From an uncultured Thermoanaerobaculia bacterium (lineage in GTDB: Bacteria; Acidobacteriota; Thermoanaerobaculia; Multivoradales; J023), in NCBI GenBank assembly GCA_964565225.1, contig CAZMEL010000007.1, positions 439 to 64,438 on the forward strand: DNA of 64,000 nt, in the 5' to 3' direction. Below, in pieces: positions 31,706 to 61,966 of this stretch. A program made the translations under genes and the position numbers. Within the stretch, counting starts at the first letter, position 1; each line of letters opens with the position of its first letter. Under the pieces are notes generated by a model. The model was not told the origin of the DNA. It did not search any database and saw nothing but the letters and a program-made list of their open reading frames with translations.

Positions 31706-33091
31706 ATGGCGCATGCCGTAGCAGCCGATATTGATCCCATCCATGGACGTCCGGCTCTCATCGAAGGGGAGCCGGACTTCCATCAGATTACCGAAGTCGT
31801 ATCGGCTCCCATGGAGTGGAAGCCACCGCTCGGCTGGTACATCTTCCTCGGCATTTCTCTCGCCTTCCTCGGCCTTCTCGGCGTCAGCATCGGCTGGCTG
31901 TTCTGGGAAGGTACGGGAATCTGGGGCAACAACATTCCGATCGCCTGGGCCTGGCCGATCGTCAACTTCGTGTTCTGGGTCGGTATCGGCCATGCGGGAA
32001 CCCTGATCTCCGCGGTCTTGTTCCTCTTCCGCATGCGCTGGCGAACCTCGATCAACCGGGCCGCCGAGGCGATGACCCTTTTCGCCGTGGCCTGTGCCCT
32101 GATCTTCCCGGGAATCCATATCGGCCGGCCCTGGTTGCCCTACTGGATGTTGCCGATTCCCAACCAGATGGACATGTGGCCCCAGTTCCGCAGCCCGCTG
32201 ATGTGGGACGTCTTCGCGGTCTCGATCTACGGCACGGTCTCGCTGCTCTTCTGGTACGTGGGGCTGATCCCCGATCTCGCCACCATGCGAGACCGCTCGA
32301 CCACCAAGATCCGGCGCATGGCCTATGGGATCTTCGCCCTCGGCTGGCGCGGCTCTTTCCGGCAGTGGCTCCACTACGAGAAGGCCTACCTGCTGCTGGC
32401 CGGCCTCGCCACGCCCCTGGTGCTCTCGGTGCACTCGGTGGTTTCCTTCGACTTTGCCACCTCGCAGCTCCCCGGCTGGCACACGACCATCTTCCCCCCC
32501 TACTTCGTGGCCGGCGCCATCTTCTCGGGCCTCGCCATGGTGATCACCCTGATGGTGATCTGCCGCGTGGTGTTCAAGCTCGAGCACATCATCAACCTCC
32601 TGCATTTCGACCGCATGGCGAAGCTGATCCTCTTCACCGGCTCGCTGGTGGGCTTCGCCTATAGCCTCGAGTTCTTCATCGCCTGGTACAGCGGAGTCGA
32701 GGTCGAGCTCTTCGCCTTCACCAATCGTGCCACCGGCCCCTACGCCTGGGCCTACTGGACGATGATCTTCTGCAACGTGGTCGTGCCGCAGATCTTCTGG
32801 AGCGCAAGGGCCCGAACGAGCATTCCGGTGCTCTTCGTCGCTTCGATCTTCATCAACATCGGCATGTGGTTCGAGCGATTCGTGATCGTCGTGACCTCGC
32901 TGCACGCCGATTTTCTTCCCGCGAACTGGGACTACTTCACGCCCACGTTCTGGGACGTTGCAACGTTCGCCGGAAGCTTCGGGCTCTTCTTCACCTTGTT
33001 CACCCTATTCGTTCGATTCCTGCCGATGGTCGCCATCGCCGAGGTGAAGAGCGTGCTGCCCCAGGCACACGTCCATCACCGGCCGGAATGA
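31706..33091 (+). CDS. actC: Alternative complex III subunit ActC (NrfD family)
   Basis: [67 protein letters not shown]. Confidence 0.92.
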
Positions 33092-33164
33092 CCGCGCAGC
33101 CGAGCACTTCTCGCGGCCCCGGGGCCGAGTGTGCTCGATCCGAAGATCCAGTCGAGGAGCGTAC

Positions 33165-33722
33165 ATGCAAGACGACACAGGGAAAGACACGGGCTCTGAT
33201 TACGGAATTCTGGCAGAGTTCCCCTCCCCCGAGGGCCTGATGCACGCCTGCGCCAAGGTGCGGGACGCCGGTTTCTCCGCCTGGGACGCACACACTCCGT
33301 TCCCGATCCATGGCCTCGACAAGGCCATGGGCCTCGAGCGCTCCATGGTTTCCGCGTTCGTCCTGGTCATGGGCCTGGCGGGCGCCGCCGCCGGGATGTT
33401 CCTGCAGTACTGGACCAGCGCCATCGACTATCCGCTGGTCATCAGCGGCAAGCCGTTCTTCAGCTGGCCCGCCTTCGTTCCCATCATGTTCGAATGTGGT
33501 GTTCTCGGAGGCGCCACCGGGGCCATTCTCGGCATGCTGGTAATGGGCCGCCTACCCCAGCACCACCATCCCCTGTTCGAATCCGAGGCCTTTGCCCGGG
33601 TAACCGATGATGCCTTCTTCATCTCGATCGAGGCCAAAGACCCCAAGTATCGACGGCAAGAGACCATGGGATTCCTCGAAGAGATCGGAGCCACCCACGT
33701 GGAGCTGGTCGCCGAGACCTGA
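33165..33722 (+). CDS. actD: Alternative complex III subunit ActD (DUF3341)
   Basis: DAHTPFPIHGLD, DYPLVISGKP, PAFVPIMFE motifs. Confidence 0.88.
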   Translation: MQDDTGKDTGSDYGILAEFPSPEGLMHACAKVRDAGFSAWDAHTPFPIHGLDKAMGLERSMVSAFVLVMGLAGAAAGMFLQYWTSAIDYPLVISGKPFFSWPAFVPIMFECGVLGGATGAILGMLVMGRLPQHHHPLFESEAFARVTDDAFFISIEAKDPKYRRQETMGFLEEIGATHVELVAET

Positions 33723-33800
33723 CCTCGACCGAACCGACACCCAGGACCGGGTCGACATCGGCTCGGATACCATCCAACACACGCTCCGACGGGTAGGACT

Positions 33801-35009
33801 ATGGAACACCAAGACGTCACATTGCGCCCCGACCAGATCACTCTCCCGGAGAGCGGCCTGTGGACCAAGCTTCCGCTCATCGGTGGCGTTCTCGGGGTCA
33901 TCGGGCTCGGCGCGTCCTTTGCCCTGGGATCCGGTGAGCACTCGGGGCAGCTCGCCTTTTCCTACCTGACGGGCTTCTTCTACTGGCTGACCATCGCTCT
34001 CGGCGGCCTGTTCTTCGTTCTCTTGCACTTTCTCTGCCGCTCGGGTTGGAGCGTGGTGATTCGCCGCCTGGCCGAGAACGTGATGGGTACTCTCCCGGTC
34101 TTCGCCGTGCTCTCCTTGCCGCTGTGGCTCTTCTGGATGCACGATCTCTACCATTGGACCCACGCAGACGCCGTGGCCCATGATCCTCTCCTGCAGCACA
34201 AGGCTCCCTATCTGAACGTGGGATTCTTCTGGGTCCGCCTGGCGATCTACTTCTCGATCTGGACCCTGCTGGCGGTCTTCTACTGGCGGCAGTCGCGCCG
34301 GCAGGACGAATCCGGGTCGATCGAGATCACGGATCTCCTGCAGCGCCGCAGCGCTCCGGGCATGATCCTCTTCGCCCTGACTCTGAATTTTGCGGCCATG
34401 GACTGGCTGATGTCCCTCGACCCTCACTGGTACTCCACGATCTTCGGTGTGTACACCTTCGCCGGCTCCGTGGTGGCGATTCTGGCGTTCCTGATTCTCG
34501 TAACGATCTCGCTCCAGAGAGCCGGCGCCCTGGCAGACGTGGTGACCGGAGAGCATTTCCACGACCTGGGCAAGCTGCTCTTCGGTTTCGTGGTCTTCTG
34601 GGCGTACATCGGCTTCTCCCAGTTCATGCTCATCTGGTACGCCAACATTCCCGAGGAAACCGCCTGGTTCGACCACCGCTGGCACCACGGCTGGGAGAAT
34701 CTCTCGATCTTTCTCGCCGCTGGTCATTTCGTGGTTCCCTTCTTCTTCCTCATCTCCCAACCGGTGAAACGCAACCAGCTGATGATGATCCTCGCCACCC
34801 TCTGGCTGCTCTTCATGCACTATGTGGACATCTACTGGCTGGTGATGCCCACTCACAGCGAATCGCTGCACTTCAGTATCCTCGACCTGACCTGCTGGCT
34901 GGGAATCGGTGGAGTGTTCCTGGCCACCTTCGGCCTGTTGATGCAGAAGGGAAGCCTGGTGCCGCGACAGGATCCGCGCCTGGCCGAATCCCTCGCCTTC
35001 GAGAACTGA
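33801..35009 (+). CDS. actF: Alternative complex III subunit ActF
   Basis: WSVVIRRLAE, DWLMSLDPHWYSTIFG, HFHDLGKLLFGF, QFMLIWYANIPEE. Confidence 0.9.
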   Translation: MEHQDVTLRPDQITLPESGLWTKLPLIGGVLGVIGLGASFALGSGEHSGQLAFSYLTGFFYWLTIALGGLFFVLLHFLCRSGWSVVIRRLAENVMGTLPVFAVLSLPLWLFWMHDLYHWTHADAVAHDPLLQHKAPYLNVGFFWVRLAIYFSIWTLLAVFYWRQSRRQDESGSIEITDLLQRRSAPGMILFALTLNFAAMDWLMSLDPHWYSTIFGVYTFAGSVVAILAFLILVTISLQRAGALADVVTGEHFHDLGKLLFGFVVFWAYIGFSQFMLIWYANIPEETAWFDHRWHHGWENLSIFLAAGHFVVPFFFLISQPVKRNQLMMILATLWLLFMHYVDIYWLVMPTHSESLHFSILDLTCWLGIGGVFLATFGLLMQKGSLVPRQDPRLAESLAFEN

Positions 35010-35152
35010 GATCCATCTCCCTGCCCGCTGCCGTAGCCTCCGCAGAAGTGTGTTGGCCGCAGCGATGTCGGTAGCGCCCGCCCGGCTCCACACTCGGGCG
35101 GGAACGAATTACAATTGGCACACATCATCCACACCCTCAGGGAGACGTTCGT

Positions 35153-36673
35153 TTGGCCAAAGTGTTGATTCTCGAGAGTGATCCGGTCCGCGCCGCGGTG
35201 CTCGAAGACCGCCTGCACGTGAACGGACACCGGGCGGAGATCTTCGCCGCCGCCGAGAAGGCCATCGACCGTGCCTGTGAAGGTGAAGCCGCGCTGATCA
35301 TCCTGGAAATGGAGAATCCAGGCCAACCTGGTCTCGAGATCATCCAGGCACTGCGCGGGCGCGACGAAACCCGCACTCTGCCGATCCTCGCCCTCTCCTC
35401 GAAAAACGACAGCCAGGAACGGGTCGCCGCTCTTCGCGCCGGCGCCGACGAGCTCCTCACCCGGCCGATCGACCTCGAAGAGCTGTTGATCCGGGCCGAG
35501 CGGCTCCTCGGCCAGCGCGGCACCTTTCCGGCGGTCATGCAGGGCGACCTCTCCAATCACCCCGCCTGGGGATTGATCCAGTACATCCAGCAGGCGGAGA
35601 AGAGCTGCCTGCTGATCGTCCGAGGGCAGCGGGGCTCGGGCCAGCTCCAGACCCGCAACGGTCAGGTGGTCTCGGCTCGTTTCGGCTCCTTGCGCAGCCA
35701 CGACGCTCTGCTCGCCCTGCTCGAGCTCAAAGAAGGCCATTTCCGGCTGACCACCGGCAACACCCCGGAGGAAGACGACGACGAGACCGAAATCCCGCCG
35801 TTCTCGATTCCCGAGGTGCTGATGCACGGCGCCTGGCTCGACGATCAGCTGCGTCGGCGGGCGGATTTCCTGCCGGCGACGGGGCTGGCCCTCGAGGCCA
35901 CCGACGGGGAGATACCGGAGATCGAAGACGAGATGGCCTCGGTGCCCATCGTCGAGGTGCTGGAGCAGATTCGTGCCGACCCCGGGATTCGTCTCTTCGA
36001 CCTCATTTCCCGGAGCCACCACGCCCCGGCCAGGGTTCGGCTGGCCGCCGCCTGGCTCGCCGAGCACGACCTCGCCGGACCTTCGGAATCGGCCAAGCAC
36101 CAGACCCTGCTGTCGACGGGCGAGATCTCTTCCTCGATGGTCCTGGAGATCGCCATTCACAATCTCCTCGCGGCCGCTCGGGAGCATGGTTTCGGCGACG
36201 GAGAGCTCCCGTATCTCGTGCTGATCGGTCGCTCTCGCTGGCCCCAGCTCCGCGAGCTGTTGGAGAACGTTCCCGGGTTCAAACGAATCGAGGCGTTACG
36301 CAGCCTGGTGAGCCAGGTCGATCGCCGCGGCGGGGGCAGCGCCTCCTTCGAAACCGACTATGGAACCCTGACGCTCCATCTCCAGATCTTCGAGCCCGAG
36401 GTGGGCCGCCAGATCTCGGCCATCGTTTCGGTTTGTGCGGGAGTTCTCCTCTGGCTGGGGCCCGATCTCGAACCGGCTTCGGTCCAGCAGATCTTCCAAC
36501 GCCTGCAGACCCAGCATTCCTCGACTCTAGGTGTCCTGGTTGCGCCCCGCGCCGAAGACCAGGATCTGGCCCGCAGCCTGGCGGCCGATTCCTTCCGCTG
36601 GCGGGTCAGCAACCACGAGCCCCAGAGCTTGATCGGAATCCTGCGACTCCTCCATCCCCGCGATACCGGCTGA
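35153..36673 (+). CDS. Atypical receiver domain, DUF4388 and unknown C-terminal domain
   Basis: Receiver fold with LIILEMENPG and LTRP; QGDLS..LIQYI..KSCLL..G.L...G.VVSA is DUF4388-like. Confidence 0.75.
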   Translation: MAKVLILESDPVRAAVLEDRLHVNGHRAEIFAAAEKAIDRACEGEAALIILEMENPGQPGLEIIQALRGRDETRTLPILALSSKNDSQERVAALRAGADELLTRPIDLEELLIRAERLLGQRGTFPAVMQGDLSNHPAWGLIQYIQQAEKSCLLIVRGQRGSGQLQTRNGQVVSARFGSLRSHDALLALLELKEGHFRLTTGNTPEEDDDETEIPPFSIPEVLMHGAWLDDQLRRRADFLPATGLALEATDGEIPEIEDEMASVPIVEVLEQIRADPGIRLFDLISRSHHAPARVRLAAAWLAEHDLAGPSESAKHQTLLSTGEISSSMVLEIAIHNLLAAAREHGFGDGELPYLVLIGRSRWPQLRELLENVPGFKRIEALRSLVSQVDRRGGGSASFETDYGTLTLHLQIFEPEVGRQISAIVSVCAGVLLWLGPDLEPASVQQIFQRLQTQHSSTLGVLVAPRAEDQDLARSLAADSFRWRVSNHEPQSLIGILRLLHPRDTG

Positions 36674-36687: not shown

Positions 36688-38319
36688 TCAGCCCTTCCTG
36701 CTCGCCTTGAAGAGGTTGCGATAGAGGGCGCGGTTCTCGACCGAATCGAAGCTCTCGAAATGAGCTTCGAACTTCCGCTTCTCCTCCATCTTGCCCTCGT
36801 CCAGATGATGGGTCAGGCGACCCATGGCGAGAAAGGTCTCCACCGGAGTCTTGCCCTCTTCGAAGAGCTCCCGGGCGAATTCCCCGAGTCGGAGCGACTG
36901 GACCTCATAGTCGTTGAGGTCGCCGAGGTTGTCCTGCAGGCTTTTCAGCGCCTTGATCGGCGCCGCGATCTCACCGCCGGGGAAAAAACCGCTGAAGAAC
37001 TCGAGAAGGTACCGTAGCTTCTTGCCGTCGATCCGGATCTCGTGCAGAACCTCCACCGGCGTGTCGGCATGTACGGTGCGGCCCTTCTTGACGATCCTCC
37101 GATAGATCTTCCAGATCCTCTCGCGGGCCACTTCCATGGCCGGGCGGCTCGCGTTGGGGCAGAGCTCGGAGCTACAAGCAGGTGGATGGGTCAGGAAGCG
37201 GTGCCAGGACTGGATCAGGGCTCGGTACCGTTCGGATCCCAGCACCTCCACCAGCCGCTTCTGCTCCAGCTTCTGGGTCGCTTCGAGGAAGCTCCTCAAG
37301 GGCTCGAGATCGCGAGCCGCGGCCTCCGGTAGAGCTGCTTGCAGGCGATCGAATTTGAGCAGGTAGACGTCGAGATCGCGGGTCGGTCCGGTACAACTTC
37401 CGAGCCAGGACAGCTCCCCGCGAAAGTGCTCGAGCTCCGCGGGAGGAAAGACCCCCTTGATCTGGGTCAATGCCGACCGGGTCCGGCGAACGGCCACTCG
37501 AAAATCGTGCAGGAACTCGGAGTCCAGATCGAGGCGAGTGCCGGTTTCGTTGGCCTGCATGGCCCGCAACAGGGAGAGGTGGATCGAACGGGCAGCCTCC
37601 GCGGCCGTCTGAGACGGTCGCAGGGGAATGCGCACCTTCGAGGAGTAGTCGCGCGGCTCTCGCCCGGCAAGGCTCAGGGCTTCCTCGAGCGGGCTCTTCT
37701 CGATCCGTTTCCAGCCGAGCTCCTTTTCGACATGGCTTCGCACCCGCTCGTACGCACTGCCGTAGCCGACCACGGAACGGACCACCAGCCGAGCGGAGAG
37801 GCGACCCAGAGGATGGCCACCGGCTCCACCGGTGGCCGCTTCGCCGGGAACCACCTCCGCCTGCTCGAACCGAGCCCGAACCACTGTCTTGCCATCGGGG
37901 TCGAGCACCCGCGCTCCGAGAACCTGGCTTCGCAGCCCGAGAATCGGCAGCAGGCGCCGCATCGACATCGGCTTCGCCAGCACCTCGCGCATCGCCTCGG
38001 GAAGCTCGTCGGAGAACCCCGGCAGGGAAGCTACCGACGCCCGGGTCGGGCGTTCGCTGTTCCCATGGGCCAGGAACAGCTCGAAGCCACCTTCGGCCCG
38101 GCGAGCTGCCGAGAGCGTGAGCTCGACCCGGTGCAGGCGCCAGTCGAACGTCTCGAGAAAGAAGGTCTCCTGCTGGCGCCGTTCCCCTTCCTGCAGCTCG
38201 AAGGGGCCTCTCAGAGCGTCGAGAGCGACAGAGGCTGCTCGTTCGAAATCGTCGAGCTCCACGGCTCCGCTCACCCGTGGCAGCTCGAACGTCGATTCCA
38301 TTTCTTCGATCAAGACCAA
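36688..38319 (-). CDS. CHAD-domain (polyphosphate-binding, phosin-like) protein
   Basis: LHDFRVAVRRTRS, GPTRDLDV, LHEIRIDGKKLRYLLE and LQDNLGDLND; N-terminal TFDWRL segment. Confidence 0.92.
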   Translation of the reverse strand: MVLIEEMESTFELPRVSGAVELDDFERAASVALDALRGPFELQEGERRQQETFFLETFDWRLHRVELTLSAARRAEGGFELFLAHGNSERPTRASVASLPGFSDELPEAMREVLAKPMSMRRLLPILGLRSQVLGARVLDPDGKTVVRARFEQAEVVPGEAATGGAGGHPLGRLSARLVVRSVVGYGSAYERVRSHVEKELGWKRIEKSPLEEALSLAGREPRDYSSKVRIPLRPSQTAAEAARSIHLSLLRAMQANETGTRLDLDSEFLHDFRVAVRRTRSALTQIKGVFPPAELEHFRGELSWLGSCTGPTRDLDVYLLKFDRLQAALPEAAARDLEPLRSFLEATQKLEQKRLVEVLGSERYRALIQSWHRFLTHPPACSSELCPNASRPAMEVARERIWKIYRRIVKKGRTVHADTPVEVLHEIRIDGKKLRYLLEFFSGFFPGGEIAAPIKALKSLQDNLGDLNDYEVQSLRLGEFARELFEEGKTPVETFLAMGRLTHHLDEGKMEEKRKFEAHFESFDSVENRALYRNLFKASRKG

Positions 38320-38358
38320 GACCGTATCTCCCGGACAGGAGCACCCCGCTCGGGATGC

Positions 38359-38856
38359 CTATTGTTTCTTGGCCTTCTTCTTGTCATCCTTCTTCTTCCC
38401 GCTCTTCTCTTTCTTGCCAGCCTTCTTCTTGCCAGCCTTCTTCTTGGCCACGTCCTTCTTCTTGCGGGCCGCCTTCTTCTTGTCGGCAGCTTTCTCCTTG
38501 CCGGTAGCTTTCTTCTTGCCGGCTGACTTGGTGCTCTTCGCCTTCTTCACTTTCTCGGGCTTCTTGCTCGCCTTTTTCTTCGAGGTGGATCGGGCCGCCT
38601 TTTCTGGCTTGGCCGCTGCCGGCGGCTCTGCTCTTCCCGGCTCGGGAGAGACCTCGGGCTTCGGCGCTGCGGTCTCTGCCTGGAGCTCCCGGGCAGCCTG
38701 CTGGATCGTTGCCGCTCGCGAAAGCCCGAATCCGGTGATCTGGGCCAGAGCTCCGACCCTGGCCTCGACAACGGCCGACAACGTTGCGAGTCCGGCAGCT
38801 GCCAGCTTTTCTGCCGTGATCTTCCCAATTCCACGGACTTTCATCAACTCGTGCAT
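38359..38856 (-). CDS. Helix-hairpin-helix protein with histone-H1-like Lys/Ala-rich tail
   Basis: VRGIGKITAEKL and ITGFGLSRA HhH motifs; the last ~75 aa are dominated by KKKA/KKK runs. Confidence 0.85.
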   Translation of the reverse strand: MHELMKVRGIGKITAEKLAAAGLATLSAVVEARVGALAQITGFGLSRAATIQQAARELQAETAAPKPEVSPEPGRAEPPAAAKPEKAARSTSKKKASKKPEKVKKAKSTKSAGKKKATGKEKAADKKKAARKKKDVAKKKAGKKKAGKKEKSGKKKDDKKKAKKQ

Positions 38857-39041
38857 GTTCGTTCTCCAACCATCGATTCTAGGATCTGATGAATGATCGC
38901 AGGCTCGTTCAGCGAGTAGCAGGAAGGGGCGAGGAAGGAGTCGAGGGGACTCGAATCCACCGAAACGAGACTCACTCGGACCCGAATTCGAGACCAGTGA
39001 GTGGTAAGCTCTCGACTAGCTTATACGATCAAAATCTCGAA

Positions 39042-40604
39042 ATGGAGCCATCAACTTCTCAGCCCCGACCGATGGGGACCATGTCCAGGCCCTCGGCAGC
39101 TCCATCGTCGAACCTGGCGGCCGTCGACCTGGGATCGAACAGCTTCCGTATGGTGATCGCTCGCCGGGTCAAGGACGAGCTGCGCCTGGTCGATCGGTTG
39201 CGCGAAGGCGTTCGCCTCGCAGAATGCCTCGACTCGAAGCAGAACCTGACCTGGGAGGGTATCGAGCGGGGCGTCCGCTGCCTGCGGAAGTTCGGCCAGA
39301 GGTTGCGGGATTTTCCCCGAGGCAACGTGCGGGCGGTGGGCACGAACACGTTGCGCAAGGCGAAGAACGGCGAAGACTTTCTCGCCGCCGCGGAAGAGGC
39401 CCTTGGATTTCCCATCGAGATCATCTCCGGCCAGGAAGAAGCACGGCTGATCTTTCTCGGTGTTTCTCACAGCCTGCCCGCGCTTCCCGGCCGTCGTCTC
39501 GTGGTCGACATCGGGGGCGGTAGCACCGAGTGCATCGTCGGCGAGGCCTTCGAGCCCCGCCGGGCGGAGAGCCTCTACATGGGCTGCGTGGGCTACACCC
39601 TGCGGTATTTCCCCAAGGGAAAGATCACTCCCAAACGGATGCAGAAAGCGGAGATCGCCGCCCGCCTCGAGATGCGACCGATCAAGGCCATGTTCCGCGA
39701 CCTGGGCTGGAGCCATGCGGTCGGCGCCTCGGGCACGATCCACGCTGTCGCCGAAATCCTCCAGGCCAACGGCTGGAGCGAGCGCGGGATCACGGCCGAT
39801 GGCCTGGCTCGTTTGCGGGCCGAGATCCTGCATCAAGGCCATGTCGACCTGCTGAGCCTCAAAGGGCTGCGTCGAGATCGGGCCAAGGTGCTGCCCGGTG
39901 GCGTCGCCGTTTTGTCCGGAGTCTTCGAAAGCCTCCGGGTCGAGAGCATGGCGGTCTCCAAGGGGGCGCTGCGCGAAGGTGTGCTCTACGATCTTCTGGG
40001 CCGGATCCGCCACGAAGACGTCCGCGACCGCACGATCCACCGCTTCGTGGAGCAATACAATGTCGACCTCGCCCAGGCGCAACGGGTCGAAGCCACGGCT
40101 CTACTTTGTTTCGAGCAGGTGGCCGAATCGTGGAAGCTCCAGGGCCCCAACGACAAGCTGCTCCTGAGCTGGGCCGCCCGGCTGCACGAGATCGGCCTCG
40201 CCATCGCACACGGCGCGTTCCACAAACACAGCGCCTATCTGATCGACTTTTCCGACATGCCGGGTTTCTCGCGCCAGGATCAACGAATCCTCTCGCTCCT
40301 GGTGCGCGGAGTCCGCCGAAAGTTTCCGCGGCAGCTCTTCCAGGCGCTCCCGACCTCCCAAGCTCGACGCACCGTTCGACTCTGCTGCCTGATCCGGCTC
40401 GCGGTGCTGCTCAACCGCAGTCGCACGGGACGACCGCTCCCTCCCTTCACACTCGAAGGCAAGGGCAAGAATCTTCGGCTCTCTCTTCCCGAGAACTGGT
40501 TGCGGGAGAATCCGCTGACCCGAGCCGATCTCGGGCAGGAGGCCTCGTATCTGAAGGCCGCGGGGATCAAGCTCCGGTTGCAGGACTCTTCGGAAGAATC
40601 TTGA
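39042..40604 (+). CDS. ppx: Exopolyphosphatase Ppx/GppA
   Basis: DLGSNSF, GTNTLR, ISGQEEARL, DIGGGSTE, GALREG and C-terminal HD-like domain. Start uncertain (39042/39072/39081). Confidence 0.94.
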   Translation: MEPSTSQPRPMGTMSRPSAAPSSNLAAVDLGSNSFRMVIARRVKDELRLVDRLREGVRLAECLDSKQNLTWEGIERGVRCLRKFGQRLRDFPRGNVRAVGTNTLRKAKNGEDFLAAAEEALGFPIEIISGQEEARLIFLGVSHSLPALPGRRLVVDIGGGSTECIVGEAFEPRRAESLYMGCVGYTLRYFPKGKITPKRMQKAEIAARLEMRPIKAMFRDLGWSHAVGASGTIHAVAEILQANGWSERGITADGLARLRAEILHQGHVDLLSLKGLRRDRAKVLPGGVAVLSGVFESLRVESMAVSKGALREGVLYDLLGRIRHEDVRDRTIHRFVEQYNVDLAQAQRVEATALLCFEQVAESWKLQGPNDKLLLSWAARLHEIGLAIAHGAFHKHSAYLIDFSDMPGFSRQDQRILSLLVRGVRRKFPRQLFQALPTSQARRTVRLCCLIRLAVLLNRSRTGRPLPPFTLEGKGKNLRLSLPENWLRENPLTRADLGQEASYLKAAGIKLRLQDSSEES

Positions 40605-40633
40605 GCCCACCCGTCGCGAAGCGCCGTCGTCGG

Positions 40634-41143
40634 TCAGCTGGTGGGCCAGAGCCTTTCGAGCATTCGCGGGCGCAGCATCCAGACCAGCTCGCCCGAGCCC
40701 TTCTCCAGCTCTTGCCACCGGGAGACGTCGAAGTCGATCCGAGCCATTGCCGCGGTGACCATGCGAATCGACGCTCGCCCGATCAGCTCCCCACCCAGGG
40801 CCGACCAGGTGGGCTCGTGCCCCGCCACCAGGAGACTTCGGAATCGGTCGTCACAACCCCGAATCTTCTCCAGCACCCCCACCACAGTCGCCTCGTAGAG
40901 CTCCGAGCTCGCCTCGATCTCGCAGCCCCAGCCTCCGGCCGCCTTCGCTTCTTCCACCGTGGTCCGGGCCCGGACGGCGGTGGAGGTCAAGATCTTCTCG
41001 GGCACCTCTCCGATCGCCGCCAGGAAACGGCCGACCACCACCGCAGATCGATGCCCGCGCCGGTTCAAGGGCCGTTCGTGATCGCGGCCGTACTCTACGT
41101 TCCAATCGGATTTCGCGTGGCGCAGCAAGATCAAGGTCTTCAT
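40634..41143 (-). CDS. sixA: SixA-like histidine phosphatase
   Basis: LLRHAKS, RPLNRRG, STAVRARTT, GHEPT. Confidence 0.9.
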   Translation of the reverse strand: MKTLILLRHAKSDWNVEYGRDHERPLNRRGHRSAVVVGRFLAAIGEVPEKILTSTAVRARTTVEEAKAAGGWGCEIEASSELYEATVVGVLEKIRGCDDRFRSLLVAGHEPTWSALGGELIGRASIRMVTAAMARIDFDVSRWQELEKGSGELVWMLRPRMLERLWPTS

Positions 41144-41240
41144 CGTTTCTTCTCGTGGGTCGGCTAGAGTCTTGTGACATGGTCGCCAATGGTAGGCTTT
41201 CAGATCCGAATCCACTCATTCAGAATCTCGAGTCAGAGGC

Positions 41241-43259
41241 ATGACCACGACGAAGTCCAAGTCACCACAAAGCAAAACGACGAAAAAGCTCGACGCGCCG
41301 GAGCATTTCATCAACCGGGAGCTGAGCTGGCTCGAGTTCAACCGCCGAGTTCTCGAAGAAGCCTTCGACGAATCGAACCCGCTGCTCGAGCGTGTGAAGT
41401 TCCTCTCGATCTTCTCCAGCAATCTCGACGAGTTCTTCATGATCCGAGTCTCCGGACTGCGCCGTCAGCTGGTTTCGGGAGTGGTCTCGTCTCCACCCGA
41501 CGGCTTGACCCCCGCCGAGCAGCTGAACGTCCTGCAGGAACGCCTGGAGCCCATGCTCGGCCAGGTCGCCCAGCTTTGGACCGAGGATCTCCAACCACGC
41601 CTGAACGGCGCCGGCATCCGCATTCTCAGCTATGACCAGCTGAAGAGCAAACAACGGAAGCTACTCCGCCGCCACTTCCAGAGAGAGATCTTCCCGGCCC
41701 TCACTCCCCTGGCCTTCGACCCCAGCCATCCGTTCCCCCACATCTCCAATCTCAGCATCAACCTGGCAGTGGTTGTCTCTCATACCGGCCAGGGTCCCAC
41801 TTTTGCCCGACTGAAGGTGCCACCCATCTTCCCTCGCCTGCTGCGAATTCCGGCCGAAGACAAGGCGGGAAGCTACGAGCGGCTGGGGCTGAGAGAAGTG
41901 GTGGCCAACAACTTCGTGTGGCTCGAGGAGGTGGTGGTCGCCAATCTCGACCTGCTCTTCCCCGAGATCGACATCGTCGACGCCTTTCCTTTCCGAGTCA
42001 CCCGCGACGCCGATTTCGAAATCGAGGAAGACGAGGCCGCCGACCTCCTGCTGGCGATGGAGGAAGTGGTGGAGCAACGTCACTTCGGCTTCGCGGTCCG
42101 CCTGGAGGTCGACAATCGGATCCCTGCTTCCATCCTCGACATGTTGGTGAGGAACCTGGAGCTCGCCCCGTACCAGGTCCACTCGACCGAGGGCCCGATC
42201 GGGCTCTCCGACGTGATGGAGCTCACCAAGCTCGACCGCCCGGAGCTCAAAGATCCTCCCTTCCAACCACACCAGGCTCTCGCGTCCGATGCCGAGATCT
42301 TCGCCGCCCTGCGCAAGAAAGACCTGCTCCTCTACCATCCCTACGACAGTTTTTCGACCGTCGTCGACTTCGTGCAGCAGGCGGCGCGCGATCCCGATGT
42401 CCTGACCATCAAACAGACCCTCTATCGGGTCGGCACCGACTCGCCCATCGTGCAGGCCCTGATGGAGGCCCGGGAAAACGGCAAGCAGGTGGCCGTGCTC
42501 GTAGAGCTCAAGGCCCGGTTCGACGAGAGGAACAACATCGTCTGGGCCAAGGCTCTCGAGCGTGCCGGGGTGCATGTGGTCTACGGGGTGCTCGGGCTCA
42601 AGACCTACCTCACCTGCGACCCGGAGATTGCTTCCGACGTCTCCGATCTCTTCAACTCTCTCACCGGGTACTCCCGCAAGGTGGTCTACAGCCACCTGCT
42701 GGTCGCCCCGGGCAGCATGCGGAAAGAGATCCTGCGGCGGATCGAGCGAGAAATCCAGAAACACTCGGAGAACGGCGGCGGGCACCTCGTGTTCAAGCTC
42801 AACTCCCTGGTCGACAAGGCCTGCATCCTCGCGCTCTATCGAGCCTCGATCGCTGGCGTCCGTGTCGACCTGCAGATTCGAGGAATCTGCTGCCTGAGGC
42901 CGAGTGTGCCGGGAATTTCCGAGAACATCCACGTGACCTCGATCGTCGGCAGGTTCCTCGAGCACTCGAGGATTCTCTACTTCCGCAACGGCGGGGACGA
43001 GGAGATCTTCATCGGCAGCGCAGACCTCATGCCGCGGAACCTCGGTGGGCGGGTGGAGCTACTGGTGCCGATCGTCGATCCGGAGATTCGCGACACCCTG
43101 CGCGATTCCATCCTCTTCGCCCACCTCCAGGACGAGCACTGCTCCCAGAAGCTCCTCGCCGACGGATCCTATGAGCCACTCCGACCGACCGAGGGTCGAG
43201 GACGGAACACACAGCAGGAGATGCTCGAGCTACGGGCGAGCCGCAGCACTCTGCATTGA
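41241..43259 (+). CDS. ppk1: Polyphosphate kinase 1 with an internal in-frame deletion spanning the catalytic His; possibly inactive
   Basis: NRELSWLEFN, NLDEFFMIRV, YHPYDSF, ELKARFDE, GRFLEHSRI and SADLMPRN are present, but GLKT is joined directly to YLTCDPE. Confidence 0.93.
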   Translation: MTTTKSKSPQSKTTKKLDAPEHFINRELSWLEFNRRVLEEAFDESNPLLERVKFLSIFSSNLDEFFMIRVSGLRRQLVSGVVSSPPDGLTPAEQLNVLQERLEPMLGQVAQLWTEDLQPRLNGAGIRILSYDQLKSKQRKLLRRHFQREIFPALTPLAFDPSHPFPHISNLSINLAVVVSHTGQGPTFARLKVPPIFPRLLRIPAEDKAGSYERLGLREVVANNFVWLEEVVVANLDLLFPEIDIVDAFPFRVTRDADFEIEEDEAADLLLAMEEVVEQRHFGFAVRLEVDNRIPASILDMLVRNLELAPYQVHSTEGPIGLSDVMELTKLDRPELKDPPFQPHQALASDAEIFAALRKKDLLLYHPYDSFSTVVDFVQQAARDPDVLTIKQTLYRVGTDSPIVQALMEARENGKQVAVLVELKARFDERNNIVWAKALERAGVHVVYGVLGLKTYLTCDPEIASDVSDLFNSLTGYSRKVVYSHLLVAPGSMRKEILRRIEREIQKHSENGGGHLVFKLNSLVDKACILALYRASIAGVRVDLQIRGICCLRPSVPGISENIHVTSIVGRFLEHSRILYFRNGGDEEIFIGSADLMPRNLGGRVELLVPIVDPEIRDTLRDSILFAHLQDEHCSQKLLADGSYEPLRPTEGRGRNTQQEMLELRASRSTLH

Positions 43260-43269
43260 CCCGGAAGAC

Positions 43270-43734
43270 TCACCAGGTCGAATAGGGGCGTCGCACCAGG
43301 TTGGAATTCAGGTAGCGGGGGTCGTCGGACACCTCGTCTCCGAGCCATGGCGGCCTCTCGAAGGCCTGTTCTTCGCTCGCCAGCTCGACCTCTGCCACGA
43401 CCAACCCGTCGTTCTCACCCCGGAACTCGTCGATCTCCCAGACGAAGCCTCCGAATTCCACCTCGTAGCGGGTCTTCTCGATCAACGGCCGCTCGCAGAG
43501 GCTGTCGAGCAGGCGGTTGGCATCGTCCATCGGAACCTCGTATTCGAATTCCAGGCGGGTGATTCCTTCGGCACGTCCCTTGATGGTCAGGAACGCGCGA
43601 TCTCCCTTCGTACGCACTCGCACATTCCGATCGGGATCGGTGGAGAGATAGCCCTGGCGAAACTCCGTACCGGATCCCAGACCCCTCCAGCTCTCGTCCG
43701 CGAGCAGAAACTTTCGTTCGATCTCTTTTCCCAC
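43270..43734 (-). CDS. CYTH-domain (triphosphate tunnel metalloenzyme) protein
   Basis: EIERKF (ExExK), RVR, TIKG, EFEYE, KTRY, WEIDEF, AEVEL. Confidence 0.93.
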   Translation of the reverse strand: MGKEIERKFLLADESWRGLGSGTEFRQGYLSTDPDRNVRVRTKGDRAFLTIKGRAEGITRLEFEYEVPMDDANRLLDSLCERPLIEKTRYEVEFGGFVWEIDEFRGENDGLVVAEVELASEEQAFERPPWLGDEVSDDPRYLNSNLVRRPYSTW

Positions 43735-43740
43735 GATTCC

Positions 43741-44523
43741 TCACTCGGGGTCGGGCGCACCGACCCGCACCTCGACGTCCCGCCAGAGAGACTCGAACGC
43801 GAGGGTCGGCTCGCGGCGCGGAGCAAAGGCTCCCAGGGGCATGCGATGGACTCCCATCTGCTCGACGAGACTCGAGTAGGGAATCCGGGTCGGCAGGAAC
43901 TCTTCCGCGAGGCGGAAGTCGAAACCCTCGAGGCTCGCCAGCTCTCCGATCGCTCGATGCATCTGCTTCCGCCGATCCACCATCGAGAGGAACGGCAGCA
44001 AACGCAGGCGGGAGATACCCCGGCGATCGAGGTGATGGTCGATCTGCTCCAGGGTCCGCAGCGAGAGTGGTGTGGGTATCGTGGGTACCAGCAGGGCGTC
44101 CGCGGCCTCGAAGACATTTTCCGAGACCACCGAGAGGCTCGGTGGGCAGTCGAGGATCACCCGCTCGTAGGCGGCCTCGAGCAAAGAGAGCCAGCGGCCG
44201 AGACGTTTCCTCGACTTCTTGGCCGCATCGAGCGCCAGATCGAGCTTGCGCAGGGAAAAATCCGCCGGCAGGACGTCGAGATCCTCGAAATCGGTGCCAC
44301 GAATCCGGCTCGCCAGCTCCGCCGATCGCGGCGAGGCCGCCAGAGCCTTGCGCCCTCCGGCGAGCTCCGGCTTGATCCGGAAGTAGTAGCTGGTCGCTCC
44401 CTGGGGATCGAGATCCCAGACCAGCGTCCGCAGCCCGTCCTGGGCGGCGAACCATCCCAGATTCACGGCGCTGGCCGTCTTTCCGACCCCACCCTTCAAG
44501 TTGAACAGTGCGTAGACTTTCAC
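43741..44523 (-). CDS. Orphan ParA/Soj-family ATPase
   Basis: Deviant Walker A KGGVGKT, DLDPQG, ILDCPP; no parB nearby. Confidence 0.92.
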   Translation of the reverse strand: MKVYALFNLKGGVGKTASAVNLGWFAAQDGLRTLVWDLDPQGATSYYFRIKPELAGGRKALAASPRSAELASRIRGTDFEDLDVLPADFSLRKLDLALDAAKKSRKRLGRWLSLLEAAYERVILDCPPSLSVVSENVFEAADALLVPTIPTPLSLRTLEQIDHHLDRRGISRLRLLPFLSMVDRRKQMHRAIGELASLEGFDFRLAEEFLPTRIPYSSLVEQMGVHRMPLGAFAPRREPTLAFESLWRDVEVRVGAPDPE

Positions 44524-45392
44524 GGCACGCCAAGCCTATCGCGATTCTCGGAGATTTCGCGTGTTCCGTCTCCAGTCGACGTTCGATTGAGGCTCCAGTC
44601 GTAGGTGTATTCGACCTCACCACGAAAAGTTTCGAGGCGATCGGCGAGCTCTTCGTCGGCAAATTCGGCCAGGTGCTCGAGCACCCCCGGCAGACCTTCG
44701 CCGAAATCGGACGCGTACCAGAGGTAGAGGCTCGAGAGCACGAGCTTCTCCCCGGCGAATCGTACGGCTCGTTCGTGGTTCACGAACGCCTCGGCTCCTC
44801 GATCGAGCAGATCCTCGAGATTCTCGGCCGTGAAAGGCTCCAGGGCCAGGTTCGGGCAGCCGTAGCTGGCGCAGTTGACCCCGTAGTGGATTCGAGGATC
44901 GTTCCAGATCGGCCGCAGAATCCGATTCTCGATGTCGTTCAGCGACAATCCCCGACCCTCGACCCGCAGCAGCTCCGCATTCCAGGGGCCCTCTCCGCCG
45001 TCGATGTGAATCTCGGTTATGGACTCCACGGGCCAGTGGTCGAGAACCACCCGCACCGTAGCCGCGTTGTAGAGATTCATCCAGTACGCCATCTGCTCGT
45101 CCCGAGAGAGGGCCGAGACTCGCGTTGCCTGGAGATCGGCCAGGTAGTCGTCGAGGTGGGCCCGGTCTTCGGAACCCACTCGTGAGTAGGCCACGACGTG
45201 GAGACCGTCCGCTCGAGCCGTCACGAACCGGTCGAGGAAATCGGCCCAGGGGCCGTGGTCGACCCGGGTCTGGCTCGCGGGATCGAAACGGGACCAGGCC
45301 CCGAACGCGCTCGTTGCACCCGCCGCCGAAACGAGGGCCAGCAACGAGACGAGAGCCAGCGCGGGGAAGAGAGCCAGAACCTTCGATCTCAT
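44520..45392 (-). CDS. Secreted DUF547 protein
   Basis: Signal peptide; AYWMNLYNAATV, SLNDIENRILR, DPRIHYGVNCASYGCP; GTGA overlap with parA. Confidence 0.88.
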   Translation of the reverse strand: MRSKVLALFPALALVSLLALVSAAGATSAFGAWSRFDPASQTRVDHGPWADFLDRFVTARADGLHVVAYSRVGSEDRAHLDDYLADLQATRVSALSRDEQMAYWMNLYNAATVRVVLDHWPVESITEIHIDGGEGPWNAELLRVEGRGLSLNDIENRILRPIWNDPRIHYGVNCASYGCPNLALEPFTAENLEDLLDRGAEAFVNHERAVRFAGEKLVLSSLYLWYASDFGEGLPGVLEHLAEFADEELADRLETFRGEVEYTYDWSLNRTSTGDGTREISENRDRLGVP

Positions 45393-52049: not shown

Positions 52050-52207
52050 TGTAGTGCGTCACGAATCTGGCGCCTTGTCTTCGGGCCCTCTCGCGCTCTG
52101 TCGGCGTTGCTCCTCCTCGAAAGATCCCCGATCTTCCTGTGTCGGAGCGCCTGGACAGGACACGAGATGACCTCGAATCCAAGGCACCATCTGCGGGACG
52201 CACTACC
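52050..52207 (-). mobile_element. 158-bp palindromic MITE/REP-like element flanked by CTAG direct repeats
   Basis: GTAGTGCGTC/GACGCACTAC terminal stem plus further nested stems; G-U pairs on the minus strand; CTAG at 52046-52049 and 52208-52211. Confidence 0.65.
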
Positions 52208-52279
52208 CTAGTCTAGCAAGATTTCGGGCGCCGATGGTCGCAAGGCGGGAGCGAGCCACGCTTCGTGGATACGGGGTTT

Positions 52280-53728
52280 TCACGGATCGAGATCTCGTGT
52301 CCGCCCGGATCGGCCGCTGGCGAAACCTTCGAGCAGGCGGCGGGGCAGGCCTTCGAAGGATCCCGAGGACATGGTGACCACCACATCTCCCGGACGGCCT
52401 TCGGCGAGGATGGTCTCGAGGGTCTCTTCGGTGCTGCCGGTGGTCCGAGCTTCGACCCCTCGCTCGCCGAGCGCCTTCGACAGGGCATCGAGATCGAGCC
52501 GCTCTTCGTCCGCGAGGCGACCGGCGTGGAAGATCGGAGCCAAGAACACGGCATCGGCTTGCGCGAAACCCCGGAGGTAGGCCTCGAAGAACATGTCGCG
52601 ACCGCCGGTGAGACTGCGCGGCTCGAACGCCACCACCAGCCTTCGATCCGGATAGGCCTGGCGCAGACCCTGGAGCGACTTCTCCACCGCCGTGGGGTGG
52701 TGAGCGAAGTCGTCGACGACGGTGACGCCGTTCGCGGTCCCGAGGGTCTCCAGCCGCCGCTTGACTCCCCGGAAGCTTCCCAGGGCCGCCGCCAGGTCCC
52801 CTGCCGGCAAGAGGTCGTGACGCCCCGCGGCCCACACCGCCAGCGCGTTCGTCAGGTTGTGCTCCCCCGGCACCTTCAGCAATACCTCTACGTCTCCGGC
52901 CTCCGGATCGGCGAGCACGAAACGAGAGCCGTCGGTACCGGCCCGGAGGTCCCTGGGAAACACATCGTTGTGGTCACCCAGGCCATAGAAACACACCCTG
53001 CACCTCGCTCCCTGCGCCACCTCTCGCACCTCCGGCGCATCCCCGAAGGCCACGAGCAAGCCGTCGGACGGCAACAATGCCACCAGCTGGCGATAGGCGC
53101 TCAGCAGCGCCTCGGGGGTCGGATAAAGATCGGCATGGTCGTATTCGACACTGGTGAGAATCAGGGTGTGGGGCAGGTAGTGCAGGAACTTGGGCCCACG
53201 GTCGAAATACGCCGCGTTGTACTCGTCGCCCTCGATCACGAAGCGCTCTCCGCCACCCACCCGGAAGCTCTGGTCCAGGTCTTGCGGCACACCGCCGATC
53301 AGGTACCCGGGGTCGGCCCCGCACCGCGAGTAGACCCAGGCGGCCATGGCCGTGGTAGTGGTCTTGCCGTGGGTGCCGGCCACCACCAGGGGTTTGCGGT
53401 CGGACAACAGGAACCGGGCCAGGGCCTGGGGCATCGACACCTGGGGCAGCTCCTTCTCGCGGGCCGCCGCGGCCTCGCGATTGGTCCGCGGAACCGCATT
53501 GCCGATCACCACCAGGTCGGGATGGGGCTCGAGATGGCTCGGGTCGTACCCCACCATGGGCTCGATCCCGGCCGCCTCCAGCAGAGTGCTCATCGGTGGG
53601 TAGAGAGGGCCGTCGGAGCCTCGGACACGGTGTCCGAGAGCCCGCAGCAGGCAGGCCAAAGGAGCCATTCCCGTACCGCCGATCGCGACGAGATGGATGT
53701 CCAAGCGAGAGTCCGAATCCGGAGACAT
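52280..53728 (-). CDS. mpl: Mur ligase, Mpl/MurC family (murein peptide ligase)
   Basis: IGGTGMAPLA, GSDGPLYPPMS, VAGTHGKTTT, EGDEY, DHADLY, DDFAHHPTA. Confidence 0.88.
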   Translation of the reverse strand: MSPDSDSRLDIHLVAIGGTGMAPLACLLRALGHRVRGSDGPLYPPMSTLLEAAGIEPMVGYDPSHLEPHPDLVVIGNAVPRTNREAAAAREKELPQVSMPQALARFLLSDRKPLVVAGTHGKTTTTAMAAWVYSRCGADPGYLIGGVPQDLDQSFRVGGGERFVIEGDEYNAAYFDRGPKFLHYLPHTLILTSVEYDHADLYPTPEALLSAYRQLVALLPSDGLLVAFGDAPEVREVAQGARCRVCFYGLGDHNDVFPRDLRAGTDGSRFVLADPEAGDVEVLLKVPGEHNLTNALAVWAAGRHDLLPAGDLAAALGSFRGVKRRLETLGTANGVTVVDDFAHHPTAVEKSLQGLRQAYPDRRLVVAFEPRSLTGGRDMFFEAYLRGFAQADAVFLAPIFHAGRLADEERLDLDALSKALGERGVEARTTGSTEETLETILAEGRPGDVVVTMSSGSFEGLPRRLLEGFASGRSGRTRDLDP

Positions 53729-53964
53729 GACCGTCTCTATCTCCTGCTGATTTCTGCCCGAGAGAGGAGGTCCGAAGCGGTGCTCGAATGGCTGGGCAAG
53801 GGGGTTTTACGGGGAATTTACGGCTGGCGCTTTGCAAGCCTGGAGGTCGAGTATAGCATTCCCGTTGCTCGGTCGATCGCACACCCCGTCGAGACCGAGA
53901 GCGCCCCAAAATCAACTTTCTCTCGACACCTGATCGATTCGAAGGCAGGTAAGGAGCTCACGGT

Positions 53965-54984
53965 ATGAGACTTTCGTCGCGTCATCTCCTCTTCCTCTCG
54001 CTGGCCCTCTCCCTGGCCGTGGCGGCGTTCGCCCAGAGCGGTGGCCCCCGGGCGATGCCCGTCGAGCCCATCAAGGACTTCGACATCGTGCCCAAGGGTG
54101 ACGTGATCCAGCACGAGTTCCTGATCAAGAACGAGGGGGATGCCCCGCTCGAGATCACCGACGTGAAACCCGCCTGCGGCTGCACTGTCGCCCGCTACGA
54201 CAAGACCATCGCTCCCGGCGCCACCGGCAAGGTGAGCGCCAAGGTCAAGACCTCCGACTTCGCCGGCCCGATCAGCAAGTCGATCGCCGTCTTCACCAAC
54301 GACAACAACAACCCCAAGCTGCAGCTGGTGGTGCGGGCCAAGATCCAGCCCTACATCTCGATCTACCCCGGCTACGCGCGCTACAACTACGTGCAGGGCG
54401 AGGATCCCGGCAGGGTGCCCCAGGTCGTGTGGGCGGCCGACGACGAGCCCATGAAAGTGCTCGACATCAAGTCGCCCTACGACTATCTCGAAGTCTCCTA
54501 CCGTCTCCTCGACAAGGAAGAGCACATCGCCAAGGGTGGTGACACCCAGTACCGGGTAGAGGTCACCCTCAAGCCCGATGCTCCGGTCGGTCCGCTGCGG
54601 GCCCACGTCGAGCTGGAGATCGACCATCCCAAGCAGAAGTCGGTGCAGATCCCCATCTCCGGTTTCGTGCGCCCCCGCCAGCACATCACCCCCGATGCCC
54701 TCGACTTCGGCCCCCTCCAGGGCGACTCGCTGCCCATGGGCCGCACCCTGAACTTCACCAACTTCGCCACCCAGGGGATCGAGGTCACCGGAATCGACAC
54801 CGGCATCGAGGCTCTCACCGCCGAGGTCGAGCCTAAGAAAGACCAGGAAGGCCACCGCTTCAAGCTCAAGCTCACCCTCGGCTCCGAAATGCCCAAGGGC
54901 GCGTTCGACACCGTGGTCACCATCCACACCAGCGACGCCAAGAAACCCACCATCGAGCTGCCGGTCAAGGGCTCCATTCTCTGA
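53965..54984 (+). CDS. Secreted DUF1573-domain protein
   Basis: Signal peptide; DFDIV..HEFLIKNEGDAPLEI..V.PACGCT..IAPG.TG signature. Confidence 0.88.
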   Translation: MRLSSRHLLFLSLALSLAVAAFAQSGGPRAMPVEPIKDFDIVPKGDVIQHEFLIKNEGDAPLEITDVKPACGCTVARYDKTIAPGATGKVSAKVKTSDFAGPISKSIAVFTNDNNNPKLQLVVRAKIQPYISIYPGYARYNYVQGEDPGRVPQVVWAADDEPMKVLDIKSPYDYLEVSYRLLDKEEHIAKGGDTQYRVEVTLKPDAPVGPLRAHVELEIDHPKQKSVQIPISGFVRPRQHITPDALDFGPLQGDSLPMGRTLNFTNFATQGIEVTGIDTGIEALTAEVEPKKDQEGHRFKLKLTLGSEMPKGAFDTVVTIHTSDAKKPTIELPVKGSIL

Positions 54985-55859: not shown

Positions 55860-57074
55860 TCAGACTCTTCGTGCCCGCAGCACCTCGCCCAACACCTCCA
55901 CCGCTCCCTTTAACTGCTCGTCGCTGAGGTAGGGCGCCGGGCCAAAGCGCAAGGACTGGCCGCGGAAGTCGGTGGCGACGCCGTGCCGGAGGAGATCGCG
56001 GCTGAGGTCGCTGGCCACGGGGGAGCGGAGGACGAGGAAGGCACCGGTCTGGCCGAGAGGGACGTCGCGGTTTCGGCGCAGGAGGGCCGGGTCGGCGTCG
56101 AGCTGGTCGAACCCTTCGGCGAGCAGGTGGATCTGGTGCTGGCTGACGGTGCGTAGAAACCGGCCGTCGAGGCCGTGCTCCTCGAAGAAGTCGAGCACAT
56201 GGGCGGCCCGGTAGTGGCTCGACGGATCGTAGGTGGCGCCGGCGAAACGGCTGGCACCTTCGCCGTAGGGCACGGTTTCGCCCGGGGCTTCGGTGAGCAG
56301 GTGGAACTCGGCGAACCACCCGGTGATCACCGGGCGCAGCTGGCAGTCGGCCGGCACGCGCAGGAAGCCGTTGCCCTCGCCGAGCTGGCAGTATTTATAA
56401 CCGCCACCCACGGCATAGGCGCCGAGCAGGCCCTCTTCGCGCAGAGAGAAGGGAATCGCACCCAGGGCGTGGTAGACGTCGACCAGCATCTCGGCGCCGT
56501 GGTGGTGGGCTGCTTGTAAGACACGATCGAGCCCGGGCACGATGCGCCCGGAGCCGAAGAGAACCTTCGACACCAGCACCGCGGCGGTGTGATCGTCGAC
56601 CTCGGCGGCGAGGCGCTCGGCGAGGCTAGAAGCGTCGCCCGAATCGACCCGGACGATCTCCACACCTTCTTCTTCCAGGCGGTCGAGCTGGCGACGGATG
56701 GAGTGGAACTCTCCATTCGTCGTCACCAATCGCGGACGTTGCTGCAAGGGCAAGGCCGAGAGGAACCGCACCACGAGCTCGTGGGTGTTCGACGCCAGCG
56801 TGCAGGAGCCTTCGTCGTCGCCGAGCCAGCGGCCCCAGCCCTGCTCCACCCGCCGGGCCTTGGCGAAGGCCCGATCCCACTTCTTGTCGACGAAACGGGC
56901 CGCGTCGTCATAACACTCAAGCAGACCCTCGCGGGCACAGTCGGGCCAGGCCTGGTGCGAGTGGCCGGTAAGCAGCAGGTGGCCTTCGCCGGGCCAGCGA
57001 TCGACCCCGAACCGCGAGTAGAGGGGTGCCAGCCGATTCGGGGACCGGTAGAGATCTTCGGGTGGAAAGGGCAT
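55860..57074 (-). CDS. kynU: Kynureninase-like PLP enzyme
   Basis: GHSHQAWP, NTHELV, DVYH, GGYKYCQLGEG (PLP lysine), GWFA, D.RG..LRFGPAPY; coupled to TDO. Confidence 0.82.
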   Translation of the reverse strand: MPFPPEDLYRSPNRLAPLYSRFGVDRWPGEGHLLLTGHSHQAWPDCAREGLLECYDDAARFVDKKWDRAFAKARRVEQGWGRWLGDDEGSCTLASNTHELVVRFLSALPLQQRPRLVTTNGEFHSIRRQLDRLEEEGVEIVRVDSGDASSLAERLAAEVDDHTAAVLVSKVLFGSGRIVPGLDRVLQAAHHHGAEMLVDVYHALGAIPFSLREEGLLGAYAVGGGYKYCQLGEGNGFLRVPADCQLRPVITGWFAEFHLLTEAPGETVPYGEGASRFAGATYDPSSHYRAAHVLDFFEEHGLDGRFLRTVSQHQIHLLAEGFDQLDADPALLRRNRDVPLGQTGAFLVLRSPVASDLSRDLLRHGVATDFRGQSLRFGPAPYLSDEQLKGAVEVLGEVLRARRV

Positions 57075-57076
57075 CC

Positions 57077-57877
57077 TCAGAGCTGGGCGCGGATCGCCCA
57101 GAGGTCGGGAAAGACCGGCTGGAAGAGGGTGGATCGCAGGTAGCTGGCACCGGGCGAGCCGCCGGTGCCCTGCTTGGTGCCGATGGTGCGCTCGACCATC
57201 TTGACGTGGCGGTAGCGCCATTCCTGGAGACCTTCGTCGAGGTCGACCATGCGCTCGCAGATCTGGGTCAGGCGGTCGTCTGCGCGGTAGATGCGGACGA
57301 ACACCTCGCGCACCGCCTCGGACTCCAGCGGCGGGGCATCACCCCGGGGCTCCATGATGTCGGCGGGAATCTCCTCGTAGCCGGCCCGGCGCACGAAATC
57401 GAGAAAGCTCTGGTAGATGGTGGGCGCTTCGAGGCGTTTCTGCAGCCGGGCCACGGCGGGCGGATTGGCACGATGGTGATCGATCATGCGCCGGATGCGG
57501 TGGCCGAGCACGAACTCCACCTCGCGGAACTGCGCCGACTGGAAGCCGCTCGCCTGGTCGAGCCGGGAGCGGAAGGAGGCGAAGGAGATGGGGGTCATGG
57601 TTTCGAGGATGTCGACCTGGGCCACCATGGTCTTGAGGATGGTCAGGGTGCGGCGCAGGGTGTGGCGAATGCGGGGCACGACGTCGCGATCGGCGGGATC
57701 GAGCAGCAGGAGCTCGGCGAGAAAATCGAGCTCGTGCAATACCTGCTTGAACCACAGCTCGTAGACCTGGTGGATGATGATGAAGAGCATCTCGTCGTGC
57801 TCGGGCCCGTCGGACAAAGGCTCTTGGAGCTGCAGCAGCTCTTCGACCTTGAGGTAGTTGGAGTAGGTGAGGGACAC
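57077..57877 (-). CDS. kynA: Tryptophan 2,3-dioxygenase
   Basis: LTYSNYL, HDEMLFIIIHQVYELWF, ASGFQSAQFR, WRYRH..MVER.IG.K.GTGGS.G. Confidence 0.95.
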   Translation of the reverse strand: MSLTYSNYLKVEELLQLQEPLSDGPEHDEMLFIIIHQVYELWFKQVLHELDFLAELLLLDPADRDVVPRIRHTLRRTLTILKTMVAQVDILETMTPISFASFRSRLDQASGFQSAQFREVEFVLGHRIRRMIDHHRANPPAVARLQKRLEAPTIYQSFLDFVRRAGYEEIPADIMEPRGDAPPLESEAVREVFVRIYRADDRLTQICERMVDLDEGLQEWRYRHVKMVERTIGTKQGTGGSPGASYLRSTLFQPVFPDLWAIRAQL

Positions 57878-57916
57878 GGTTCCCTGCCTTTGCTGGGTAA
57901 GAAGTTGAGATGGGCC

Positions 57917-58747: not shown

Positions 58748-58842
58748 GTCTGGAGCTCCGAACGATGGGAAAACGGGTCTTCGAGCGTATCAGACGGAAG
58801 CTCTTCTCCGGCCGGAAACTCCGGCGTCCGACACGCCGCGGC

Positions 58843-61837: not shown

Positions 61838-61937
61838 CTGCTCTCCGCATGTACGCCGAGGCTCGGCGTCCGTTCGCTCTCCGGGGGCGCAATCTATCAC
61901 GGGCCCGGTGGAGGACGGAGGAAGGCACAAAAGGGGG

Positions 61938-61966
61938 TTGATTGTCCACCGTACCGCAATTACAAT
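61938..61966 (+). promoter_or_regulatory. Sigma70 promoter for tRNA-Glu, TTGATT-N17-TACAAT
   Basis: Correct spacing, about 40 nt upstream of the tRNA. Confidence 0.7.

Follow-up and report, generated by a model that had tools for sequence, protein, structure and literature searches.

A gap in the polyphosphate kinase gene of one deposited marine Acidobacteriota contig, most likely due to mis-assembly or to a rare variant

Does a marine bacterium whose deposited polyphosphate kinase lacks the phospho-acceptor histidine live without polyphosphate (polyP) synthesis, or does the deposited record differ from the organism? The question is raised by the ppk1 gene in the window, i.e., the whole stretch of 64,000 nucleotides analysed here, which forms part of a metagenome-assembled genome (MAG). 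Three readings of this gene were offered in an earlier note made from the sequence alone, namely a dead enzyme kept as a scaffold, a recent loss of polyP synthesis and an assembly artefact; the scaffold has not survived the analysis, and the artefact and the recent loss are both still standing. Most likely, the gap reflects mis-assembly or a rare variant and does not characterise the organism.

The ppk1 gene and its missing segment

The gene for polyphosphate kinase 1 (PPK1) was taken from the list of open reading frames (ORFs) and occupies positions 41241-43259 on the plus strand, encoding 672 aa as deposited. All four Pfam domains of the PPK1 set (PP_kinase_N, PP_kinase, PP_kinase_C_1 and PP_kinase_C) are found in its product, each above the gathering threshold with E values from 1e-38 to 1e-59, and the PPK1 chains of the PDB match the protein at E 1e-97 to 1e-101. 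Judged by architecture and sequence, the gene is an ordinary PPK1. Its N-terminal domain (41307-41624, plus strand; residues 23-128; positions 1-106 of the 107 in the PF13089 profile), its middle or head domain (41649-42224, plus strand; residues 137-328; PF02503 profile 1-183 of 183) and its C2 domain (42696-43193, plus strand; residues 486-651; PF13090 profile 1-165 of 172) are complete. The C2 domain has the histidine motif FLEHSRI, which the alignment equates with YLEHDRV of the E. coli enzyme (1xdo), the equivalent of E. coli His592, and its H575 is invariant in the 121 sequences aligned. The claim that the remainder of the 672-aa frame is intact, FLEHSRI included, is thus borne out by both Pfam and the alignments.

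The exception is the C1 domain (42294-42608, plus strand; residues 352-456), where only positions 1-105 of the 167 in the PF17941 profile are matched; this truncated match ends at residue 456, and the PP_kinase_C match begins at residue 486. Positions 42594-42623 of the window read GGG CTC AAG ACC / TAC CTC ACC TGC GAC CCG, and the junction AAG ACC / TAC CTC lies between 42605 and 42606 on the plus strand, where 114 nt (CACGCCAAGATG...GACCTCGGC) are missing with respect to the intact allele. Exactly 38 residues are absent from the protein, between GLKT455 and Y456LTCDP, and the alignment to E. coli PPK (1xdo) breaks at query residue 456, equal to chain residue 434, and restarts at the same query residue, equal to chain residue 472. 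The phospho-acceptor histidine (GLKxHAK, E. coli His435) is not in the window protein, where Tyr456 stands at the aligned position, and the second conserved histidine with the GTGN(Y)N loop (YxHxGTGNYN) also falls within the 38 missing residues. As read from these alignments, the whole HxK...GTGN motif of the phospholipase D (PLD)-like C1 domain, both histidines included, is gone from the window protein. The in-frame deletion of the autophosphorylated histidine described in the earlier note is therefore real in the deposited sequence, its "about 38 aa" being exactly 38 aa or 114 nt, and the motifs that had been expected between the flanks (GLKxHAK, YxHxGTGNxN and TAxxYTD) agree with the consensus of the relatives. 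In the account given in one preprint, His435 of E. coli Ppk contacts the ATP phosphates, and E. coli no longer accumulates polyP when this residue is mutated (bioRxiv 10.1101/630129, with reference to Kumble 1996 and Zhu 2005). The deposited 672-aa form, if translated, would be catalytically dead.

The intact allele and the gene neighbourhood

The nearest named relatives are MAGs of Acidobacteriota, to which the uncultured marine organism probably belongs as well. When the nine closest database relatives (70-86% identity) were aligned, a gap of 38 columns appeared only in the window protein, and the comparison extended to all other PPK1s aligned found the segment in 120 of 120, each holding exactly 38 residues at the gap and each beginning with His. 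A protein-based scan of genome contigs returned only relatives at no more than 68% identity, all of full length. The exact junction sequence had no match in genome contigs, the exact right-flank sequence had none in genome contigs or metagenome contigs, and a search for the contig record that encodes the window protein itself found none.

The window protein is the representative of a two-member protein cluster, of which the other member, P0121, has 710 aa and is known from both ENA, on a scaffold, and Logan, on a contig, the two belonging to one study. At the shared residues the two proteins are identical (672/672), and P0121 additionally has the 38, among them His456, the other conserved histidine and the loop GTGNYN. 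From the ENA scaffold, which is 69,131 bp long and comes from sample SAMN20336539, 22 kb were taken for comparison (L001). By blastn and a base-by-base comparison, L001 and the window show 35 SNPs across these 22 kb, the sole indel being the 114 nt at 42605/42606; within ppk1 there is one synonymous SNP and no further damage to the gene. The intact population allele of ppk1 is 710 aa long, against 672 aa deposited.

The surroundings of ppk1 are those of an ordinary, compact polyP gene cluster (36688-45392), the neighbours all being intact. Its members are a CHAD-domain protein (36688-38319, minus strand; PF05235, E 4e-63; the same gene is in L001), a small HHH_5 protein listed next, a Ppx/GppA exopolyphosphatase (39072-40604, plus strand; PF02541 and PF21447, both matched by the gene at 7832-9364 of L001), a histidine phosphatase of the His_Phos_1, SixA-like type (40634-41143, minus strand; PF00300 on the L001 gene 9394-9903), and, beyond ppk1, a CYTH-domain or triphosphate tunnel protein (43270-43734, minus strand; PF01928, E 1e-18), a ParA-like ATPase (CbiA/AAA_31; 43741-44523, minus strand) and, as the last listed member, a DUF547 protein. 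The start given for the exopolyphosphatase follows L001, in which the called gene encodes 510 aa; the longest ORF begins at 38889. The second ppk1 or ppk2 that had been suggested as worth searching for did not appear: tblastn found no second ppk1 in the window, and no PPK2 domain was found by Pfam in the 30 window ORFs, the calls of which are crude (GC3-based) and several of which have no Pfam match, or among the Pfam entries of the L001 genes, equivalent to window 31241-53259.

These comparisons bear directly on the proposal that selection has retained a catalytically dead PPK1 in the role of scaffold or regulator, i.e., as a pseudoenzyme. Such a proposal would account for the preserved frame and for the complete N-terminal, head and C2 domains. 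Any deletion, however, has a one-in-three chance of staying in frame, and the lesion is found in 0 of 120 relatives, including P0121, which is intact and yet identical at the 672 shared residues. Identity of this degree to an intact allele leaves no history after the loss, and therefore no time for selection to have acted on a dead form. The loss also hits the HxK...GTGN motif together with conserved C1 residues which, from the alignments, would not make up a separable module, and the window offers neither a second ppk1 nor a PPK2. We regard selection for a dead scaffold as next to impossible, and a conserved pseudoenzyme is excluded by a lesion that no relative shares and by zero divergence since the event.

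Some features of the rest of the window may be recorded here. Directly upstream of the polyP cluster, the stretch 31706-36673 holds NrfD and ActD genes (alternative complex III-like subunits), followed by a gene without a Pfam match and a PatA_N response regulator. The ORFs at 562-2205, 2234-3598, 7777-9609, 10793-12013, 15219-16760 and 57026-59083 match no Pfam family at E <= 1e-5, and some of the long ORFs without Pfam matches may be calls on the wrong strand. An example is the plus-strand ORF at 52265-53968, where the gene calls of L001 place an overlapping Mur ligase gene on the minus strand. The sole tRNA of the window, tRNA-Glu(CTC) at 62006-62081, shares 39 nt with the beginning of the longest reading frame for the Amidase_3 gene (60278-62044, minus strand), and this gene therefore probably starts further in.

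Two strains in three seawater runs

Only three public runs hold the organism (X1, X2 and X3), all of them seawater metagenomes of one study; the locus was not present in the groundwater runs X5-X7 or in run X8. The data examined for the runs are Logan contigs, from which rare variants are lost and in which depth is given solely as the mean of each contig. Of 32 SNP sites within 20 kb, all show the L001 allele in X1 and all show the window allele in X2 and X3, so that X2 and X3 represent the strain of the window and X1 a sister strain. The two strains are about 0.16% apart, mostly by synonymous differences, the sister strain dominating X1 at depth 19 and that of the window (X2, X3) standing at about 4-8x.

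The missing bases are present in both strains. In X1 (depth 19), a 19,642-bp contig has 114 additional bases exactly at 42605, its record positions 10041-10153 being inserted at that point of the window. In X2, a 235-bp contig at depth 5.1, with flanking contigs at 3.8-6.1, reaches 116 nt left of 42605, and its final 30 nt, GGTCACCGCGAAGATCTACACCGACCTCGG, are identical to the last bases of the intact insert. The window's own strain thus has the insert too, at a depth close to that of the flanks. Independent assemblies of the same samples, namely the ENA scaffold and the Logan contigs of X1 and X2, have these bases, so that the ~114 bp, whose presence in reads or PCR the earlier note had tied to mis-assembly, are there at the level of contigs. 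The gap exists in the deposited contig and is unique to it, and the intact allele occurs in the same runs and in the same strain.

Coverage of the region is thin. The X2 contigs cover the insert and the right junction and leave the intact left junction uncovered, and X3 has no contig over 42209-42626. Throughout X2, the contigs are interrupted at intervals of a few hundred bases and overlap by 6-21 nt, a pattern typical of coverage gaps, and a gap at the left junction is therefore unremarkable.

Two further observations concern these runs. At 45966, the end of an X2 contig runs into the Nextera adapter TGTCTCTTATACACATCTCCGA, from which it follows that the libraries are Nextera and that adapters were incompletely trimmed. 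At 52100-52193, a gap between genes by the ORF calls, the cover in X1 consists of five very short contigs with depths of 31-55, compared with 19 elsewhere, and its long contigs break there; the same loose end at 52129 (AGAACGACGGCGGATCAATCC...) is found in X1 and X3. The pattern suggests either a structural variant or a short element that also occurs at a different locus or in a different organism.

The origin of the join

Among the Logan contigs of X1, X2 and X3, none spans the deleted join. One 200-bp contig of X2 ends at 42608 (..AAGACCTAC), 3 nt beyond the join and without a mismatch. Logan retains only k-mers seen at least twice; with this minimum, the 3-nt extension means that at least two reads, possibly mates of one fragment, fit the deleted form, which is therefore not purely computational. 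The ends of the segment lead to the same point. In the intact allele they share a microhomology of 1 nt (C), there is no longer direct repeat at the ends of the 114-nt segment, and no inverted repeat or stable hairpin bridges them (DNA fold z = +2.1). Without a repeat at the ends, a de Bruijn assembler could not invent the join, and some molecules must carry it. Repeat collapse, slipped-strand events and hairpin jumping were also considered as origins of the deletion and are unsupported, there being no repeat or hairpin at the ends.

Another origin of these 3 nt would be that the window's strain has CAC>TAC, i.e., a His-to-Tyr change, at the catalytic codon and that the 114-nt gap is a separate artefact. 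The X2 contig ending in ..ACCTAC would then derive from a gene of intact length, and the X2 contigs would overlap there by 6 nt (ACCTAC), much as at other breaks (6, 14 and 21 nt). This reading nevertheless needs a SNP at one given base that happens to recreate the junction, in strains that diverge by 0.16%, and on top of it an unrelated further lesion in that very codon, and His occupies the position in 120 of 120 relatives. It is very improbable.

A further reading takes the deletion to be real. Segregating inactivating mutations are common in natural populations, and the MAG may derive from a sub-lineage and sample in which a recent loss-of-function allele predominated or had become fixed, PPK1-dependent polyP synthesis having been lost before any further decay of the gene. 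This reading draws on the need for real junction reads where the ends offer no repeat, on the 3 nt for which the X2 contig fits the deleted join, and on the continuity of the deposited contig through the join. It is at odds with the insert standing at about flank depth in the same strain in X2, with the 0 Logan contigs that cross the deleted join in X1, X2 and X3, the sole runs with the organism, and with the intact state of the adjoining polyP genes. We consider a dominant null allele unlikely. A weaker form, in which a real ppk1-null subpopulation lives alongside wild-type members of the same marine strain, so that a loss of polyP synthesis would be under way in situ, is a tentative proposition that we find doubtful.

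The explanation that we favour, with good though not complete confidence, is that the gap is private to one deposited contig, where a few aberrant or rare molecules were followed through a spot of low coverage, and that the population, including the strain of the window, is intact. The join would have arisen in a low-coverage sample of about 4-8x. Coverage of the majority intact path would have failed at the left end, as in X2, where no solid k-mers lie over the left junction, and the few molecules with the join would have been the sole continuous path open to the assembler from the left flank. The 114-nt segment would then have hung from the right flank as a dead end, presumably to be clipped by the assembler. 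The molecules that bear the join could be a library chimera or a deleted fragment, possibly overlapping mates of one fragment, or they could represent a rare real deletion allele. We infer both the choice made by the assembler and the small number of junction-bearing molecules, and the source reads of the deposited contig may lie outside the indexed runs. The organism is expected to retain polyP synthesis.

Taken at face value, the deposited MAG implies an organism without PPK1 activity or with a "dead" PPK1, and a metabolic reconstruction of how this marine lineage stores phosphorus would be wrong if the deposited ppk1 were taken literally. The 710-aa allele (P0121) is the better representative, and the MAG gives no ground for inferring a loss of polyP synthesis; the main value of the case is as a caution. 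Should the deletion be a real minor allele, it would be an ordinary segregating null mutation.

Among known systems, pseudoenzymes, i.e., dead paralogues that serve as scaffolds, resemble the deposited gene solely in having an ORF without the catalytic residue, and they differ from it in that the lesion here is unconserved, no divergence has followed it, and no active paralogue was seen in the vicinity. Consensus errors and minority-path joins in low-coverage MAGs are like it in that a single-copy gene shows one indel against all other assemblies of the samples at a place where coverage is thin; the difference is that no k-mer repeat lies at the ends, so that this is not the usual collapse of a repeat. 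The closest likeness is to PPK1 itself, as known from E. coli Ppk (1XDO/1XDP) and from P. gingivalis (2O8R), with which the gene has in common the four domains (N, head, C1 and C2), the FLEHSRI motif and the position adjacent to ppx. The deposited window protein differs from E. coli Ppk in being without residues ~435-472, His435 among them, and P0121 has them.
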